64,000 bases of DNA from an uncultured Candidatus Saccharibacteria bacterium (GCA_964593885.1 CAZQKK010000002.1:157204-221203); one strand, 5' to 3'. Counted from the stretch's first letter, positions 40,260-53,547 are shown. Numbers and translations: made by a program. Notes: generated from the letters alone by a model not told the origin.

Positions 40260-40295
40260 TCACTGCAAACCCGCATGGGTTTCAAAAAATTCACT

Positions 40296-40340
40296 ACTCC
40301 CCCTACCTGTATCGCAGGGCGGGGGAGTCTTTTTATTTTG
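40296..40340 (+). terminator. candidate terminator hairpin
   Basis: actccccc...gggggagt stem with internal cctg/cagg pairing, then cttttta. Confidence 0.4.
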
Positions 40341-40585
40341 TAACGTATACAAGTACTACAAAACGTAGCGCGAAACTGTGTCAACGTAAATACAAGATAT
40401 CCACCTCTAGGAGCCAAAATAGGGAAGGTACTAGCGCTTAACTATTCTTTGTATAGTGCCTTCCTGAGGGTATTATAACGTCGCCAATTGTTTATTTAGT
40501 GTCTTTATAATACGCGAAATACTGGTAATGCACCCAAACCAGCATAATATACCACTAAACCGGGATTGTAAGGTGTATTTCCGCC

Positions 40586-51387: not shown

Positions 51388-51427
51388 GTACCTTTAGGCT
51401 CTGGTAGCCATAAATAACCTATAGTAG

Positions 51428-51724
51428 TTAGGAGAGAGCCTGCCTAGCTGATTGCATTCCAATGGCGTCATTTGCCTTCACTAGCACAGCATTTGCTTGC
51501 TCAGCAGCTGCTAGTACCTCGGTGAGGGTTTCCTTTTCAATATCTAGTGCAACCTCTTCAAGCTCCATCACCGTTTTCAAGACAACCAGCTCTTCTGAAT
51601 CAAGCTCGCCTGGGCTAGTATCAACAATTTTGAAAGCCTCAACCATCTTTTCGCGAAGCTCATCGTACTTCCCTGCTTCAAGAAGCTGATCTACTTGCTC
51701 TTCGGTTAGGAATGCCCCGCTCAT
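51428..51724 (-). CDS. small acidic helical protein (chaperone-like)
   Basis: 98 aa, strongly acidic. Overlaps the upstream 608-aa gene stop (ATGA). Confidence 0.4.
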   Translation of the reverse strand: MSGAFLTEEQVDQLLEAGKYDELREKMVEAFKIVDTSPGELDSEELVVLKTVMELEEVALDIEKETLTEVLAAAEQANAVLVKANDAIGMQSARQALS

Positions 51725-53547
51725 GAGTACCTCGCTGCTACGGTGTTACGGATGAGTTCTGCGTACTGCCTTGTTCGTGAGTTGAGTGAGAGATCACCAG
51801 CAATACCATCTAGTGAATCTTTAATGAATGTGAGAAGGTTCGCCGATTCAATACTTCTAGTACTCTGCAGTTTTGCTGCAAGGTTCTCAAACCCTCTCAA
51901 AATTGTGCTGATATTCTTACCACCCTTTGCCTCAAGCTGCTCGAGAAGGTTCTTTTGAAAAACGTTGCGTGATTCATCCTCAATCATTTGCTTTATCTGG
52001 TCTACATCAACTTCTCCATTGATGAGAGTGGCGTAGCTTGCGTTCTCAATTTGCTTCCTGGCGGCATCAATACCACTTAAGTCACCTTTTGTGAGTTTTG
52101 ACTTGAGTGACTCTCTTAGCGCAACGTTAATTGCTCCACCTAGTCCATCGATAGCAGGAATATCAGCCTTAATCTGAGAAGCAATAGATTCAGCTCCAGA
52201 TTTTGCCATCTGGAGATTACTCCCCGATGCAAGAATAGACTCTACTTGCGCAATATCCTCTTGGATACTCTTCCTGTCCCGCCCGGCTCCCATTTTGTGG
52301 TTTGCAACGAGGTTCTGCTCTGCGTCTCTGAACTTCCTACTTGTCATGCGATACACTGTGCCAAGAACACTCCCATTGGTTCCATACTTATTTACAGCGT
52401 TCAGAGAAGACCGCAAGTCCATGAGTCTCCTAGTGTTTGCATCTGGATCTACATCCAACCCATGCTGTTCCATCTGCTTTCTCAACCCTTGCACTTCCTT
52501 ATCTTTTGCCTCAAGTGCAGCCATCTCCTCTTTGAGAGAATCAAAAGCGTAGGGGTTACTAATTGCCTGTTCTTGAACCTGGGCGCGGATGGCGTCCATC
52601 CTGCTCCCCATGGTCTCTTTTGCCTGGTACACCTCGGTGAGGGCAGTTTGTACGGTATCCAGGTTACTTCGCTCATCGCTCACCATCTGTCGCGCCACGC
52701 TATCTTCCTGTGCCTGGACGATAGTTGCTAGCTCTGTTGCAAGACCCGAAGGCGCAGGAGCACCTCCAACAACCTTAGCACGCTCAGCATCCACAATTCG
52801 CTTGAGCTCGGTGCGGTGCTTCTCAACAATATCTACGAGGTGGGGCGAAGTTACTCCCTCAATCACAAATGCGTTGAGCTTGCCTTCCATTGCCGTGAGC
52901 TCAGTGACAACCGCGTGGTCATCAGCAAGGTTTGAAAACGAGGGTTTACTGAGGCCTGCATCAACTTTCATCTTTGAAATTGAAGCCTCAACGTTACCGA
53001 GTTCAGCCCGGTAGGCTTCAAAGTCCGTCCGCAGCTCATCAGCTACAACATCTTCGGCTTCTGTCCCACCTGGGTGGTTATCCTGGCTATCAGGAACATT
53101 TGCTAGCTTTGCTGCATCTAACTTTGCCTTGAGGTTATCAGGTAGTGCAGCGGTTGCATCGGCAAGTTCGCTCCCAAGTGCTGGGTAGAAAAATGCCACA
53201 AACCGCTCACGGTATGGCTTGTTTGAGGGAAGCTTGAGGCTCTCATCAAACCTGAGGCCTGCCTCCCTAAACTCCTGCTTTACTCCTCCAACCATCTGTT
53301 CAGCAACCTTCTGCTGTTCCTTATACCTCCCATGGTACTCCATCAGCTCATCTGTGGCAGGCTCATCGAGGCTCAAACCAGCAAACACCCTCGTTCCAGA
53401 TTGTGCCTCAACCTTATCTAGGAAATCCAAAAACTTCTCATCGTCCAGGAGCTGCATCGTGGTTTTGCGCTGCTCTGCTTCTGGTGTTGGAGCCTGGCGA
53501 AACTTGTCGAAGAAGTTATTGAAAGCCATATGTACCCAGTGTAGCAC
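51721..53547 (-). CDS. large soluble coiled-coil protein
   Basis: 608 aa, no TM. Long heptad-like segments. Begins 12 bp after tgt stop on the same strand. By-eye GC about 44%. Confidence 0.5.
   Translation of the reverse strand: MLHWVHMAFNNFFDKFRQAPTPEAEQRKTTMQLLDDEKFLDFLDKVEAQSGTRVFAGLSLDEPATDELMEYHGRYKEQQKVAEQMVGGVKQEFREAGLRFDESLKLPSNKPYRERFVAFFYPALGSELADATAALPDNLKAKLDAAKLANVPDSQDNHPGGTEAEDVVADELRTDFEAYRAELGNVEASISKMKVDAGLSKPSFSNLADDHAVVTELTAMEGKLNAFVIEGVTSPHLVDIVEKHRTELKRIVDAERAKVVGGAPAPSGLATELATIVQAQEDSVARQMVSDERSNLDTVQTALTEVYQAKETMGSRMDAIRAQVQEQAISNPYAFDSLKEEMAALEAKDKEVQGLRKQMEQHGLDVDPDANTRRLMDLRSSLNAVNKYGTNGSVLGTVYRMTSRKFRDAEQNLVANHKMGAGRDRKSIQEDIAQVESILASGSNLQMAKSGAESIASQIKADIPAIDGLGGAINVALRESLKSKLTKGDLSGIDAARKQIENASYATLINGEVDVDQIKQMIEDESRNVFQKNLLEQLEAKGGKNISTILRGFENLAAKLQSTRSIESANLLTFIKDSLDGIAGDLSLNSRTRQYAELIRNTVAARYS

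Follow-up and report, generated by a model that had tools for sequence, protein, structure and literature searches.

The nine minus-strand genes between tgt and secFD in this Patescibacteria (CPR) genome are organized around two paralogous ATPases of the type IV coupling protein (T4CP; VirD4/TrwB) lineage and, judged from sequence comparisons, represent an ancient locus fixed in ultrasmall Patescibacteria, not a foreign island or accessory cluster. We tentatively interpret the locus as a chromosomally fixed, conjugation-derived translocase, ancestral to Patescibacteria, that may export fast-evolving membrane-active or surface proteins with the aid of small acidic helpers. We consider this reading quite possible; what has been shown is the homology and anatomy of the parts, their synteny, the regime of selection, the mosaicism of the cassette and, in published work, the essentiality of probable orthologs. 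An earlier sequence-only reading had proposed a secretion or conjugation-derived apparatus with two paralogous HerA/VirB4-type ATPases, and a conjugation-derived, membrane translocation-type core around two paralogous VirB4/VirD4/HerA-superfamily ATPases is supported. Coordinates below refer to the window, i.e. the whole 64-kb stretch of DNA that was analysed.

All nine co-oriented ORFs were confirmed at the coordinates given, the gene read as 115 aa measuring 114 aa. The run from the 114-aa gene (49862-50206) through the 826-aa gene (47375-49855), the 141-aa gene (46950-47375, directly upstream of ATPase1), ATPase1 (44447-46942; 831 aa) and the 240-aa gene (43699-44421) to ATPase2 (40586-43687; 1033 aa) is compact, with gaps of 11, 25, 7, -1 and 6 bp counted from ATPase2 upwards, the last three of which bear out the tight spacing described previously between ATPase1 and the 114-aa gene. 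A 214-aa ORF (49862-50506) was rejected, being the 114-aa gene spuriously extended at its 5' end. The 303-aa gene (50337-51248, counted from its ATG) is set apart by gaps of 130 bp and 179 bp. Further upstream, the 98-aa gene (51428-51724) overlaps the stop of the 608-aa gene (51721-53547) by 4 bp; the latter has a GTG start and would encode 602 aa (51721-53529) from the ATG at 53529 used by its homologs. On this spacing, the cluster probably comprises at least three transcription units. The 303-aa gene has the promoter and terminator attributed to it, namely a sigma-70-like TTGACA-17-TAAAGT with TG (51387-51359), in a region conserved in relatives at the nucleotide level, and a terminator-like hairpin 3' of the gene (50313-50286), its stem of 12 pairs (8 G-C) leading into a T run. 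An extended -10-like tggtatact was read directly at 50246-50238, upstream of the 114-aa gene, where it had been reported; given this motif and the tight gaps downstream, it is presumed to mark the start of an operon extending from the 114-aa gene through ATPase2. At the other end, the spacer at 40260-40585, an intergenic region on which a 181-aa plus-strand ORF and ATPase2 converge with their 3' ends, is AT-rich as described (41.7% GC vs 52.4% over the whole window), returned no match in Rfam and tRNA searches and is partly conserved in the related locus L086.

Both ATPases contain a RecA-like P-loop NTPase domain of the VirD4/VirB4/HerA-FtsK superfamily with intact Walker A and Walker B motifs, and the homology evidence places them in the T4CP lineage. 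ATPase1 has a single, strongly predicted N-terminal TM helix (approximately aa 17-39), followed by a cytoplasmic DUF8128 region (approximately 55-400) and a T4CP/VirD4-type P-loop domain (Walker A GQTGVGKT, 431; Walker B FYLYVDEF, 681). ATPase2, which is 35% identical to ATPase1, combines DUF8128 with a T4CP-type ATPase domain (Walker A GKSGVGKS, 392; Walker B FLYVDEF, 636) and a long P/Q-rich C-terminal tail. Assignment of DUF8128 (PF26449) rests on precomputed matches in all listed homologs, including 86-97% identical ones, a local Pfam scan of both ATPases having given no DUF8128 match, perhaps owing to a local copy without the model. The previous description of both as membrane ATPases stands for ATPase1 but not for ATPase2, in which TM prediction found no segment in this genome; the N-termini of ATPase2 orthologs in L007, L014 and L015 are hydrophobic by eye. 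Canonical T4CPs carry two TM segments. In the AF2 ATPase model, the strands bearing Walker A and Walker B are separated by a helical bundle (helices at approximately 506-633), a TrwB_AAD_bind Pfam match covers 380-694 of ATPase2, and 365 residues align to TrwB in an overall rather than domain-by-domain alignment. In a neighbour-joining tree, ATPase1 and ATPase2 were each monophyletic across the sampled CPR lineages, with Walker motifs intact in both, indicating that the duplication predates the split of these lineages. Purifying selection on both is extreme (dN/dS about 0.016; 0.018 for ATPase1 and 0.015 for ATPase2, vs 0.047 for tgt).

Full-length homologs of the ATPases, comprising both the DUF8128 N-domain and the ATPase domain, were found on plasmids of Bacillus subtilis (NZ_CP032854), the actinomycete Embleya (NZ_CP108778) and the haloarchaeon Natrinema (NZ_CP084475), adjoining Replic_Relax relaxases, TcpE/PrgI, VirB4-like ATPases and NlpC/P60 proteins; on these plasmids they fill the coupling-protein position beside relaxase and VirB4. 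The family also occurs in Bacillus phages (PHROG 5156, SPO1 gp27.4). A gene for a sigma70_r4/HARE-HTH DNA-binding protein adjoins ATPase2 in L007, L014, L015 and Southlakia epibionticum ML1, a neighbour that weighs against a protein-export reading.

The 240-aa acidic, cytoplasmic partner encoded between the ATPases has a variable N-terminus, a conserved short helix and a conserved C-terminal beta-rich domain (approximately 120-238) containing the motif NYASKSKLVEGDxLKL. It found no match in Pfam or PDB, its family yields weak, non-significant MazE/AbrB-like matches (best E 0.018, 4/23 members), and its gene evolves under a dN/dS of 0.08. In 23/60 loci with enough flank, ATPase1 has a homolog of this partner no more than 4 kb downstream.

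The cluster had been described as an accessory block breaking a housekeeping neighbourhood, a view that comparison with relatives overturned. Relatives with ATPase identities ranging from 97% to about 43%, Berkelbacteria among them, share the order L10-L12-tgt-[cluster]-secFD, and the arrangement L10-L12-tgt...ATPase1-240-aa gene-ATPase2...secFD was found in L088, L087, L086 and L001 as well as the deep lineages L014 and L015. L007 shares it as far as ATPase2, where its sequence ends, and the short contig L032 retains tgt-ATPase1-ATPase2 only. The locus was present in every relative examined. Across most sampled CPR loci, ATPase1 occurs without ATPase2 nearby (ATPase2 within 9 kb in 3/49). Pfam scanning of the nine proteins and 30 flanking ORFs gave no integrase and no relaxase, VirB4, VirB6, VirB3 or VirB8 match; no phage structural gene was matched, no tRNA gene was found at the locus, and the only repeats were those between the two paralogous ATPases, with no flanking direct repeats. 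The recurrence of position and order in deep CPR lineages, the lack of repeats, tRNA and integrase, and the low ATPase dN/dS together argue against an accessory origin.

A GC mosaic noted by eye was confirmed, most plainly at the third position of codons: GC3 comes to 0.39-0.41 in the 114-, 826- and 141-aa genes, 0.44-0.48 in the 608- and 98-aa genes, 0.63 in the 303-aa gene and 0.58-0.65 in the ATPases and tgt. Between this genome and L088, in which ATPase1 is 97% and ATPase2 98% identical, the cassette formed by the 303-, 114-, 826- and 141-aa genes is only 24-43% identical (24-29%, 38-41%, 37-41% and 39-43%, respectively). Nucleotide similarity is undetectable from 51135 to 47923, and synonymous differences in the cassette are past saturation (pS > 0.83), compared with pS of 0.42-0.57 in flanking genes. 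These patterns indicate that a hypervariable, recombining cassette resides in a fixed locus and that the block as a whole is not a recent insert.

The non-ATPase proteins proved as uncharacterized as had been supposed. The 826-aa protein, a recombinant mosaic of alleles by its identity pattern, contains Gly-rich hydrophobic segments as previously described, though three in number (approximately 240-280, 395-412 and 540-556) instead of two, along with the invariant motif LDLDGD..H.VK (aa 433-446) and, at the C-terminus, an alpha/beta domain (approximately aa 635-826). A search of 1.84 billion representative proteins found only 12 relatives. Structure prediction, which the sequence-only reading had put forward as a check, gave a poor AF2 model (pLDDT 55), for which fold comparison returned no match. 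Signal peptide prediction was negative for both the 826- and 608-aa proteins. The 303-aa protein combines a signal peptide and a TM segment (approximately 210-232) with a coiled coil, a P/T-rich linker and a basic tail, and its counterparts in L087 and L088 bear collagen repeats (Collagen Pfam matches). The 114-, 141- and 98-aa proteins have pI values of 4.1-4.2; of these, the 141-aa protein (pI 4.2) is low-complexity and fast-evolving, and its slot just upstream of ATPase1 holds a small gene in most loci, drawn from at least three unrelated families.

The acidic helical 114-aa protein belongs to the DUF5663 family by transitive membership, since the window's protein alone falls below the PF18908 threshold (E 0.064 on the 214-aa extended ORF; none at E 0.01 on the 114-aa ORF) but 12/17 aligned DUF5663-type members match it (best E 2.6e-8). 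Iterated HMM searching identified 19 DUF5663-type ORFs in the loci, of which 16 by script, and 18 after two loci were checked by hand, abut a large acidic orphan ORF. DUF5663 genes lie within 5 kb upstream of ATPase1 in 13/57 loci, and the partnership of DUF5663, large protein and ATPase1 is kept despite rearranged order, for example in L070 and L079. An ORF of at least 600 aa occurs within 5 kb upstream of ATPase1 in 26/57 loci, which does not clearly exceed the chance rate. Among the large proteins, homology could be detected no further than within close lineages, and any continuity of 'cargo' across CPR is therefore positional and not sequence-based. The 608/98-aa pair was found in the closest relatives only. 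The coiled-coil 608-aa protein has a conserved N-terminal region of approximately 115 aa, a variable centre and an invariant C-terminal RTRxYAELIRNTVxARY, and the acidic helical 98-aa protein (pI 4.1) is 97% identical in L088. Absence of the 608-aa gene from L085/L086 and L001 marks it as a lineage-restricted addition.

Published Tn-seq data for S. epibionticum ML1 bear on several of these genes (Wang et al. 2023, Table S1). SEML1_0142, classed ES/ES/ES and class I essential, and the non-essential SEML1_0293 are the probable orthologs of ATPase1 and ATPase2, respectively, on the basis of annotation, domain coordinates and synteny rather than sequence alignment. SEML1_0141 (139 aa), just upstream of SEML1_0142, had zero insertions and was called essential, as were SEML1_0161, which encodes 767 aa, and SEML1_0162, a DUF5663 gene. 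Three separate loci house the DUF5663 module (SEML1_0161-0163) and the ATPases in ML1. SEML1_0163 (DUF5663) matches trigger-factor C-terminal and LTXXQ chaperone folds (Wang et al. 2023, Table S2); given these chaperone-like structural matches in the DUF5663 family, a role for the small acidic helical proteins as chaperones or adaptors is plausible. In a survey of T4CP homologs (Quinonero-Coronel et al. 2025, PMC12102498), the ML1 t4cp was taken to be non-essential, as against the second, essential paralog SEML1_0142 listed in Table S1 of Wang et al. The same survey counted 5,713 VirD4-type matches in 2,918/3,035 CPR genomes, only 148 of the 5,713 being near virB4.

In the translocase interpretation that we favour, the two anciently duplicated T4CP-family ATPases, each pairing DUF8128 with a VirD4/TrwB-like hexameric P-loop motor, would serve as motors or gatekeepers at the cytoplasmic membrane, with ATPase1 anchored by one Nout-Cin helix, ATPase2 presumably soluble in this lineage and the 240-aa beta-domain protein as a putative fixed cytoplasmic accessory. 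We infer the cargo identity, the chaperone roles and the export route. Cargo would be the products of genes directly upstream of the motors, that is, the signal-peptide-less 826-aa protein with its potentially membrane-inserting Gly-rich segments, to which the 608-aa coiled coil would have been added in this sub-lineage. The 114-aa DUF5663, 141-aa and 98-aa proteins may hold cargo export-competent and dock it on the ATPases, a role modelled by analogy on the chaperones and adaptors of T4SS coupling proteins, and the 303-aa protein, predicted to be Sec-exported and membrane-anchored, would join the cargo at the surface. Cassette products would there face the host cell or predators, an exposure that could explain why the cassette diversifies and swaps by recombination and the motors are nearly invariant. 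Such a locus offers a testable candidate for epibiont export of host-contact proteins. Export might employ the CPR VirB4-type T4SS encoded elsewhere without a recognised coupling protein, as is the case for the T4SS of S. epibionticum (Wang et al. 2023), or the module might act alone. T4CP homologs are present in more CPR genomes (96%) than VirB4 (80%; PMC12102498), so a simple role as the 'missing T4SS coupling protein' cannot account for everything. The stronger proposal, that both ATPases, the 240-aa protein, DUF5663 and the Gly-rich giants form a stand-alone, VirB4-independent, CPR-specific protein-translocation system of coupling-protein descent, strikes us as rather improbable. Were it true, membrane-active proteins would be delivered or inserted at the epibiont-host interface, for example as a conduit supplying auxotrophs, and arms races with the host would drive cassette swapping.

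T4CPs on their native plasmids move DNA, which counts against a protein-export reading, and the ATPases may instead be DNA translocases that kept this ancestral activity, acting in import or export with host or sibling cells or in a conjugation-like or nucleotide-scavenging route. On this view the role of DNA adaptor would fall to the 240-aa beta-domain protein, alongside the sigma70_r4/HARE-HTH protein in other lineages, and the variable cassette would be an unrelated adjacent surface-protein locus. This is consistent with the relaxases adjoining plasmid homologs, a match to the CedD 'DNA-translocating ATPase' (E 1e-9), a fold common to TrwB, HerA and FtsK, the weak MazE/AbrB-like matches of the 240-aa family and the placement of the sigma70_r4+HARE-HTH gene next to ATPase2. 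We nonetheless regard it as unlikely, given that relaxase, oriT-like repeat and nuclease are all absent from the 64-kb window, that CPR relaxases are rare (109 in 103/3,035 genomes; PMC12102498), that ComEC-dependent DNA uptake is dispensable in ML1 whilst the probable ATPase1 ortholog is essential, that ML1 has a separate, genuine FtsK, that the MazE/AbrB hints fall short of significance and that DUF5663/large-protein linkage to ATPase1 survives rearrangements. That linkage also bears on whether the locus simply joins two independent neighbours, with the ATPases and 240-aa protein performing envelope housekeeping and the 303/114/826/141 genes (plus 608/98) forming a hotspot of surface or adhesin variation served by Sec or other routes. 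The rarity of ATPase2 near ATPase1, the three separate ML1 loci, the fact that the 303-aa gene has a promoter, a terminator and a Sec signal to itself, and the near-chance rate of large upstream ORFs would all fit such independence. Against it, DUF5663 lies within 5 kb of ATPase1 in 13/57 loci vs roughly 1% by chance (a rough estimate for 1-3 copies per genome, not formally computed), the association outlasts reordering in L070 and L079, junctions of 6, -1 and 7 bp tie the 114-, 826- and 141-aa genes to ATPase1, and the 826- and 608-aa proteins are without signal peptides; on balance we think independence improbable as well.

Defence genes are typically dispensable and patchy. An anti-phage or anti-mobile-element system built on HerA/DndH/MADS-type ATPases with variable sensors or effectors is suggested by PADLOC mad8 matches (E 3e-20 and 7e-13), by weak HerA and DndH matches and by the hypervariability and low GC3 of the neighbouring genes, which resemble defence hotspots. 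The matches nevertheless stop at the generic ATPase domain; the search turned up none of the other mad, dnd, dpt, NurA, Sir2 or nuclease partners, the other seven proteins had no PADLOC matches, and a locus syntenic across CPR classes, with T4CP homologs in about 96% of genomes, a dN/dS of 0.015-0.018 and a probable ortholog that is class I essential in ML1, makes a defence function very unlikely. The occurrence of the ATPase family on plasmids and in Bacillus phages, together with a real GC mosaic, could also point to a recent, decaying remnant of an integrated conjugative element or prophage. That explanation is largely refuted, and we give it almost no credence, by the recurrence of position and order in deep lineages, the intact Walker motifs under extreme purifying selection, the lack of integrase (among the proteins scanned), tRNA and flanking direct repeats, and the lack of phage structural matches.

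Among known systems, a complete MPF-FATA T4SS would include VirB4 with a VirB6/VirB3(PrgI)/VirB8/VirB1-like cluster, which the window does not contain; VirB6, VirB8, relaxase and phage genes are absent as stated in the sequence-only reading, whereas its claim that VirD4 is missing fails, both ATPases being VirD4/T4CP-type. Legionella Dot/Icm (DotL with IcmS/IcmW/LvgA/DotM/N/Y/Z) and Helicobacter pylori Cag-beta/CagZ are among the closest known systems, but the small proteins show no significant similarity to IcmS/W, DotY or CagZ (the DotY match, E 0.16, lies in a coiled-coil region), CPR are monoderm and linked T4SS channel genes are absent. Type VII secretion (EssC/EccC, WXG100/LXG) is similar in that its membrane ATPase, at times divided between two polypeptides, comes from the same superfamily and that small acidic helical proteins of approximately 100 aa occur beside large polymorphic proteins, yet no multi-FtsK-domain EssC/EccC, WXG100 substrate, EssB/EsaA or EccB/D/E was found. 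Unlike HerA-type defence (MADS mad8, DndH/DptH, Nezha), the locus has none of the partner genes and is syntenic, near-universal in CPR and under housekeeping-like constraint.

The closest resemblance is to the T4CPs (VirD4/TrwB/TraD/TraG) of MPF-FATA conjugative elements of monoderm bacteria and archaea, with which the ATPases share a P-loop motor fold with a modelled helical insertion between Walker A and B, the predicted N-terminal membrane anchor of ATPase1, and full-length homology, including DUF8128, to occupants of the T4CP slot on the Bacillus, Embleya and Natrinema plasmids, albeit at only 22-27% identity. In contrast to those T4CPs, the ATPases have been duplicated, are encoded on the chromosome at a single, fixed syntenic site, have no relaxase, VirB4 or other T4SS genes within 64 kb, are linked to partners restricted to CPR (the 240-aa family, DUF5663 and orphan giant proteins) and include one paralog that is probably essential for growth of ML1. 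Orphan T4CP homologs of Patescibacteria are already in the literature, where exaptation for other functions was suggested (Quinonero-Coronel et al. 2025, PMC12102498), and the ATPases described here almost certainly belong to the same family. To that survey our analysis adds the organization into two paralogs, their conserved place between tgt and secDF, the 240-aa and DUF5663 partners and the hypervariable cassette.

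We found all nine minus-strand ORFs that the sequence-only reading had placed between secDF and tgt (40260-53547), named here by product length. The same reading had taken them for an accessory island, which proved wrong: their order and position recur in relatives whose ATPase1 (831 aa; 44447-46942) ranges from 97 % to about 43 % identity. Outside the cluster the window holds CPR housekeeping genes, among them those for NusA, HisRS, a Clp ATPase, the division proteins FtsA and FtsZ, ribonucleotide reductase, a helicase-nuclease of UvrD type and SecD/SecF, as well as tgt and the genes for ribosomal proteins L1, L10 and L12. 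The order L10-L12-tgt-cluster-...-secF-secD was found again at several distances, namely in L088 (97 % ATPase1 identity), L087 (93 %), L085 and L086 (86 %) and L001 (66 %). At about 43-45 % identity, L014 (Berkelbacteria) and L015 displayed the complete series from tgt through ATPase1, a 240-aa-like gene and ATPase2 (1033 aa in the window; 40586-43687) to secFD; in L007 the series could be followed as far as ATPase2, where the sequence stops, and the short contig L032 held just tgt, ATPase1 and ATPase2. A search for att-like or DGR-like repeats brought up direct repeats between the two paralogous ATPases and no others, and the locus therefore carries no insertion signature. Neither tRNA genes nor Rfam families reached threshold across the whole 64 kb. 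One lineage-restricted addition was evident, the 608/98-aa gene pair, which L087 and L088 share but L085, L086 and L001 lack. That the cluster is an ancient, vertically inherited CPR locus is well supported.

Several finer features of the cluster were as first described. Successive intergenic gaps from ATPase2 to the 114-aa gene measured 11, 25, 7, -1 and 6 bp, bearing out the tight spacing between the 114-aa gene and ATPase1 (7, -1 and 6 bp), and an extended -10-like tggtatact (50246-50238, minus strand) precedes the 114-aa gene. The 303-aa gene, isolated by gaps of 130 bp and 179 bp, has its own promoter-like site (51387-51359, minus; TTGACA-17-TAAAGT with TG) and strong terminator hairpin (50313-50286, minus), as had been claimed. 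The reported GC mosaic was most clearly visible at third codon positions, with GC3 of 0.39-0.41 in the 114-, 826- and 141-aa genes, 0.63 in the 303-aa gene and 0.58-0.65 in both ATPases and tgt. The 608-aa ORF, joined to the 98-aa gene by a 4-bp overlap, also stood, but its start did not, as homologs begin at the ATG at 53529 to give 602 aa. A 214-aa ORF (49862-50506) was rejected as a spurious extension of the 114-aa gene.

Elsewhere in the window, a 181-aa plus-strand ORF (39714-40259) separates secF from the 3' end of ATPase2 and matched nothing in Pfam or PHROGs; relatives carry at this place an oppositely oriented gene of 162-169 aa. At 59704-62920 (minus) lie a DUF11/CLIPPER-repeat protein of 642 aa and a neighbouring 409-aa protein, both probably surface proteins and both conserved in position in L085, L087 and L088. 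GH18 (chitinase-like) and DUF3048 proteins are encoded amid housekeeping genes at 11872-15387.

A homolog search with ATPase1 returned more than 1,800 proteins, all from Patescibacteria/CPR metagenome bins and all containing PF26449 (DUF8128), while exact-sequence look-ups with ATPase1 and the 826-aa protein matched no recorded contig. In sequence searches the ATPases matched VirD4/TraD-type proteins (VirD4/TraD/TrwB/TraG-D_C/DUF87) weakly yet consistently. Compared by fold, the values were 26.1 for the VirB4 C-domain, 25.3 for the DptH C-domain, 24.6 for TrwB, 24.0 for HerA, 22.0 for DotL, 21.1 for Cag-beta and about 17-19 for EccC/FtsK. Full-length homologs that align over N-domain and ATPase alike (22-27 % identity) were often plasmid-borne, in Bacillus, in Streptomyces and relatives, in haloarchaea and in Sulfolobus. 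On the B. subtilis plasmid NZ_CP032854 the homolog is directly followed by a Replic_Relax relaxase, then TcpE, a VirB4-like ATPase and further conjugal transfer proteins; an Embleya plasmid has the order PrgI, XF1762, VirB4-like ATPase, ATPase homolog, Replic_Relax and NlpC/P60, and in a Natrinema plasmid the homolog comes after a large conjugal-transfer protein. These full-length homologs are decisive: the family is a coupling-protein (T4CP) class used by conjugative elements in monoderm bacteria and in archaea. Bacillus phages also encode full-length homologs (DUF8128 plus ATPase, 21-23 % identity), including SPO1 gp27.4 (L090, the SPO1 locus, 5887-8607), phage G gp156, CampHawk, Wes44 and PBC1, which fall in PHROG 5156, annotated as unknown function. 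The PHROGs search returned just this family and PHROG 7035, likewise of unknown function, in addition to weak P-loop terminase matches.

Both paralogs retain intact Walker A and Walker B motifs, and ATPase2 of the window genome has no TM segment. In a neighbour-joining tree the CPR ATPase1 and ATPase2 proteins formed two sister clades, jointly apart from plasmid and phage proteins and each spanning the sampled CPR lineages; the duplication is therefore older than the split of those lineages. ATPase2 adjoins ATPase1 in just a minority of lineages, lying within 9 kb downstream in 3/49 loci with at least 9 kb of downstream flank. A 346-aa Sigma70_r4 plus HARE-HTH gene sits directly upstream of ATPase2 in L007 (13174-14214), L014 (14518-15558) and L015 (12817-13857); the window cluster has no such gene.

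Comparison with L088 separated a frozen frame from a hypervariable cassette. Amino acid identity was 99 % for L10, 98 % for L12, 93 % for tgt, 97 % for ATPase1, 89 % for the 240-aa protein, 98 % for ATPase2, 97 % for the 98-aa protein and 67 % for the 608-aa protein, against 24-29 % for the 303-aa, 38-41 % for the 114-aa, 37-41 % for the 826-aa and 39-43 % for the 141-aa protein. The ATPase block shared 87 % DNA identity, whereas no DNA similarity was detectable over 51135-47923, and conservation of the 303-aa gene at the DNA level was limited to its promoter and signal-peptide region. dN/dS was 0.018 for ATPase1, 0.015 for ATPase2 and 0.047 for tgt. Synonymous divergence of the 114-aa and the 826-aa gene was past saturation (pS >0.83) compared with 0.42-0.57 in flanking genes, indicating that the cassette alleles are older than the genomic background. 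Their history conflicts with the genome tree: the window 114-aa protein shares 80 % identity with the more distant L086 but about 40 % with L088, and residues 111-480 of the 826-aa protein resemble the L085/L086-type allele (about 55 %, versus 27-41 % to the L088 allele) while residues 631-826 resemble that of L088 (63 %, versus 30 %). This pattern reflects shuffling of the cassette by recombination; no DGR-like repeats were found in the region. The 303-aa counterparts in L087 (12268-13137) and L088 (12274-13059) contain collagen-like repeats (PF01391), in place of which the window protein combines a coiled coil with a P/T-rich linker.

A search of 1.84 billion representative proteins gave the family of the 826-aa protein (47375-49855) only 12 members, which conserve an N-terminal helical motif, Gly-rich hydrophobic segments and a C-terminal alpha/beta domain. 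Directly after the second Gly-rich segment, the motif LDLDGD..H.VK (aa 433-446) is invariant in 11/11 aligned members and is similar to a Ca-binding DxDxDG loop. AF2 modelled the protein poorly (pLDDT 55), and Foldseek against PDB gave no known fold (best E 0.5). A profile match to SmhB, an alpha-pore-forming toxin component, was not accepted (E 0.047, not significant). In the 608-aa family (51721-53529) an N-terminal segment of about 115 aa is conserved, the centre is variable and an Arg-rich C-terminal tail, RTRxYAELIRNTVxARY[SA], is invariant. T4SS substrates carry positively charged signals at the C-terminus, which this tail loosely resembles.

Small partner genes showed recurrent placement. 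A 240-aa family member, keeping the C-terminal beta-rich domain with its motif NYASKSKLVEGDxLKL, lies at most 4 kb downstream of ATPase1 in 23/60 loci with sufficient flank; its profile had no significant PDB match and only weak MazE/AbrB hints in Pfam. The 240-aa protein was rejected as a relaxase relic because hhalign against the plasmid Replic_Relax relaxase gave a probability of 3 %. The 114-aa protein appears by profile to be a DUF5663 member, PF18908 being matched by 12 of 17 aligned family members, with the window member alone below threshold. DUF5663 genes occur at most 5 kb upstream of ATPase1 in 13/57 loci and abut a large protein in 16/19 cases by script, or 18/19 once two loci were checked by hand. 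These large proteins (about 700-2,040 aa, mostly very acidic) had no detected homologs beyond close relatives. The trio of ATPase1, large protein and DUF5663 is kept even where order is rearranged (ATPase1-large-DUF5663-...-tgt in L070 and L079). The slot directly upstream of ATPase1 usually encodes about 125-190 aa and is filled by at least three unrelated families, among them the window's 141-aa type. At least two others, recurrent and unrelated to it, were seen among ORFs ending at most 200 bp upstream of ATPase1 in L005-L084: one with the C-terminal motif WLKIIPGVNKFFLEQEAKIKTD (about 18 loci) and one with LDxFHDxLxDxL...KG (about 14 loci).

Published genetics of Southlakia epibionticum ML1 bear on this locus. 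Its type IV secretion system (Se T4SS) is essential and has no recognisable coupling protein (Wang et al. 2023; PMC10633639). From domain coordinates, Pfam pattern and synteny we infer that SEML1_0142 and SEML1_0293 are the ATPase1 and ATPase2 counterparts. SEML1_0142, a 1,019-aa 'TraM recognition domain' ATPase that is core and CPR-enriched, scored ES/ES/ES (class I essential), and the 139-aa SEML1_0141 directly upstream had zero insertions after selection (PMC10633639, Table S1). The 921-aa SEML1_0293 has the same Pfam pattern as ATPase2 and is non-essential, and SEML1_0294 (sigma70_r4+HARE-HTH), directly upstream, is essential (PMC10633639, Table S1); the two appear to be the same pair as in L007, L014 and L015. 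The 767-aa orphan SEML1_0161 and the DUF5663 protein SEML1_0162 are essential, and a second DUF5663 protein, SEML1_0163, is growth-defective (PMC10633639, Table S1), with structural matches to trigger-factor C-terminal and LTXXQ chaperone-like folds (PMC10633639). Substitution of FtsK by the ATPases was rejected because ML1 carries a separate, genuine and essential FtsK, SEML1_0096 (PMC10633639, Table S1). More broadly, VirB4 was reported in 2,417/3,035 CPR genomes, and VirD4-type T4CP homologs in 2,918 genomes (5,713 genes, just 148 near virB4), with exaptation of the latter proposed as possible (Quinonero-Coronel et al. 2025; PMC12102498).

It is well supported that a T4CP-family translocase, duplicated and accompanied by a small fixed partner, forms the core of the locus, and that a recombining, hypervariable cassette flanks it. 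This cassette encodes large proteins that lack signal peptides, an anchored protein exported by Sec, and small helical proteins of acidic character. As to mechanism, we tentatively favour, at a little under even odds, a model in which the ATPases would export or insert the large proteins encoded next door, with the small acidic proteins serving as putative chaperones or adaptors and the route being either the CPR T4SS or autonomous. Retention of DNA translocation by the ATPases is rather unlikely, and equally so is the reading that a housekeeping ATPase module and a hotspot of surface variation adjoin by coincidence. A defence system is very improbable, and a mobile-element remnant is more improbable still.

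A large part of bacterial diversity consists of Patescibacteria, which are obligate epibionts, and the locus bears on how they move material to and from their hosts. Their essential T4SS has neither a recognised coupling protein nor recognised substrates, and concrete candidates for both are given here by a near-universal, strongly constrained pair of coupling-type ATPases, next to which lie membrane-active proteins that evolve fast and lack signals, together with chaperone-like partners. In the sole genetically tractable CPR species one paralog is probably essential, and the main text of that study is silent on it. The hypervariable cassette could mark host range or strain-level conflict. Our literature search found no paper mentioning DUF8128 or DUF5663, nor DUF87 in 'Candidate Phyla Radiation'. 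Both the ATPase family and the fact that it is an orphan in CPR had been known; we found no earlier description of how the locus is built, of its ancient pair of paralogs, of the partner families, of the hypervariability of the cassette or of the link to overlooked essentiality data. The initial idea of a conjugation-derived translocation apparatus with chaperone-like partners is reasonable, though unproven. The locus is also a clear case in which the core genome has domesticated a conjugation component.
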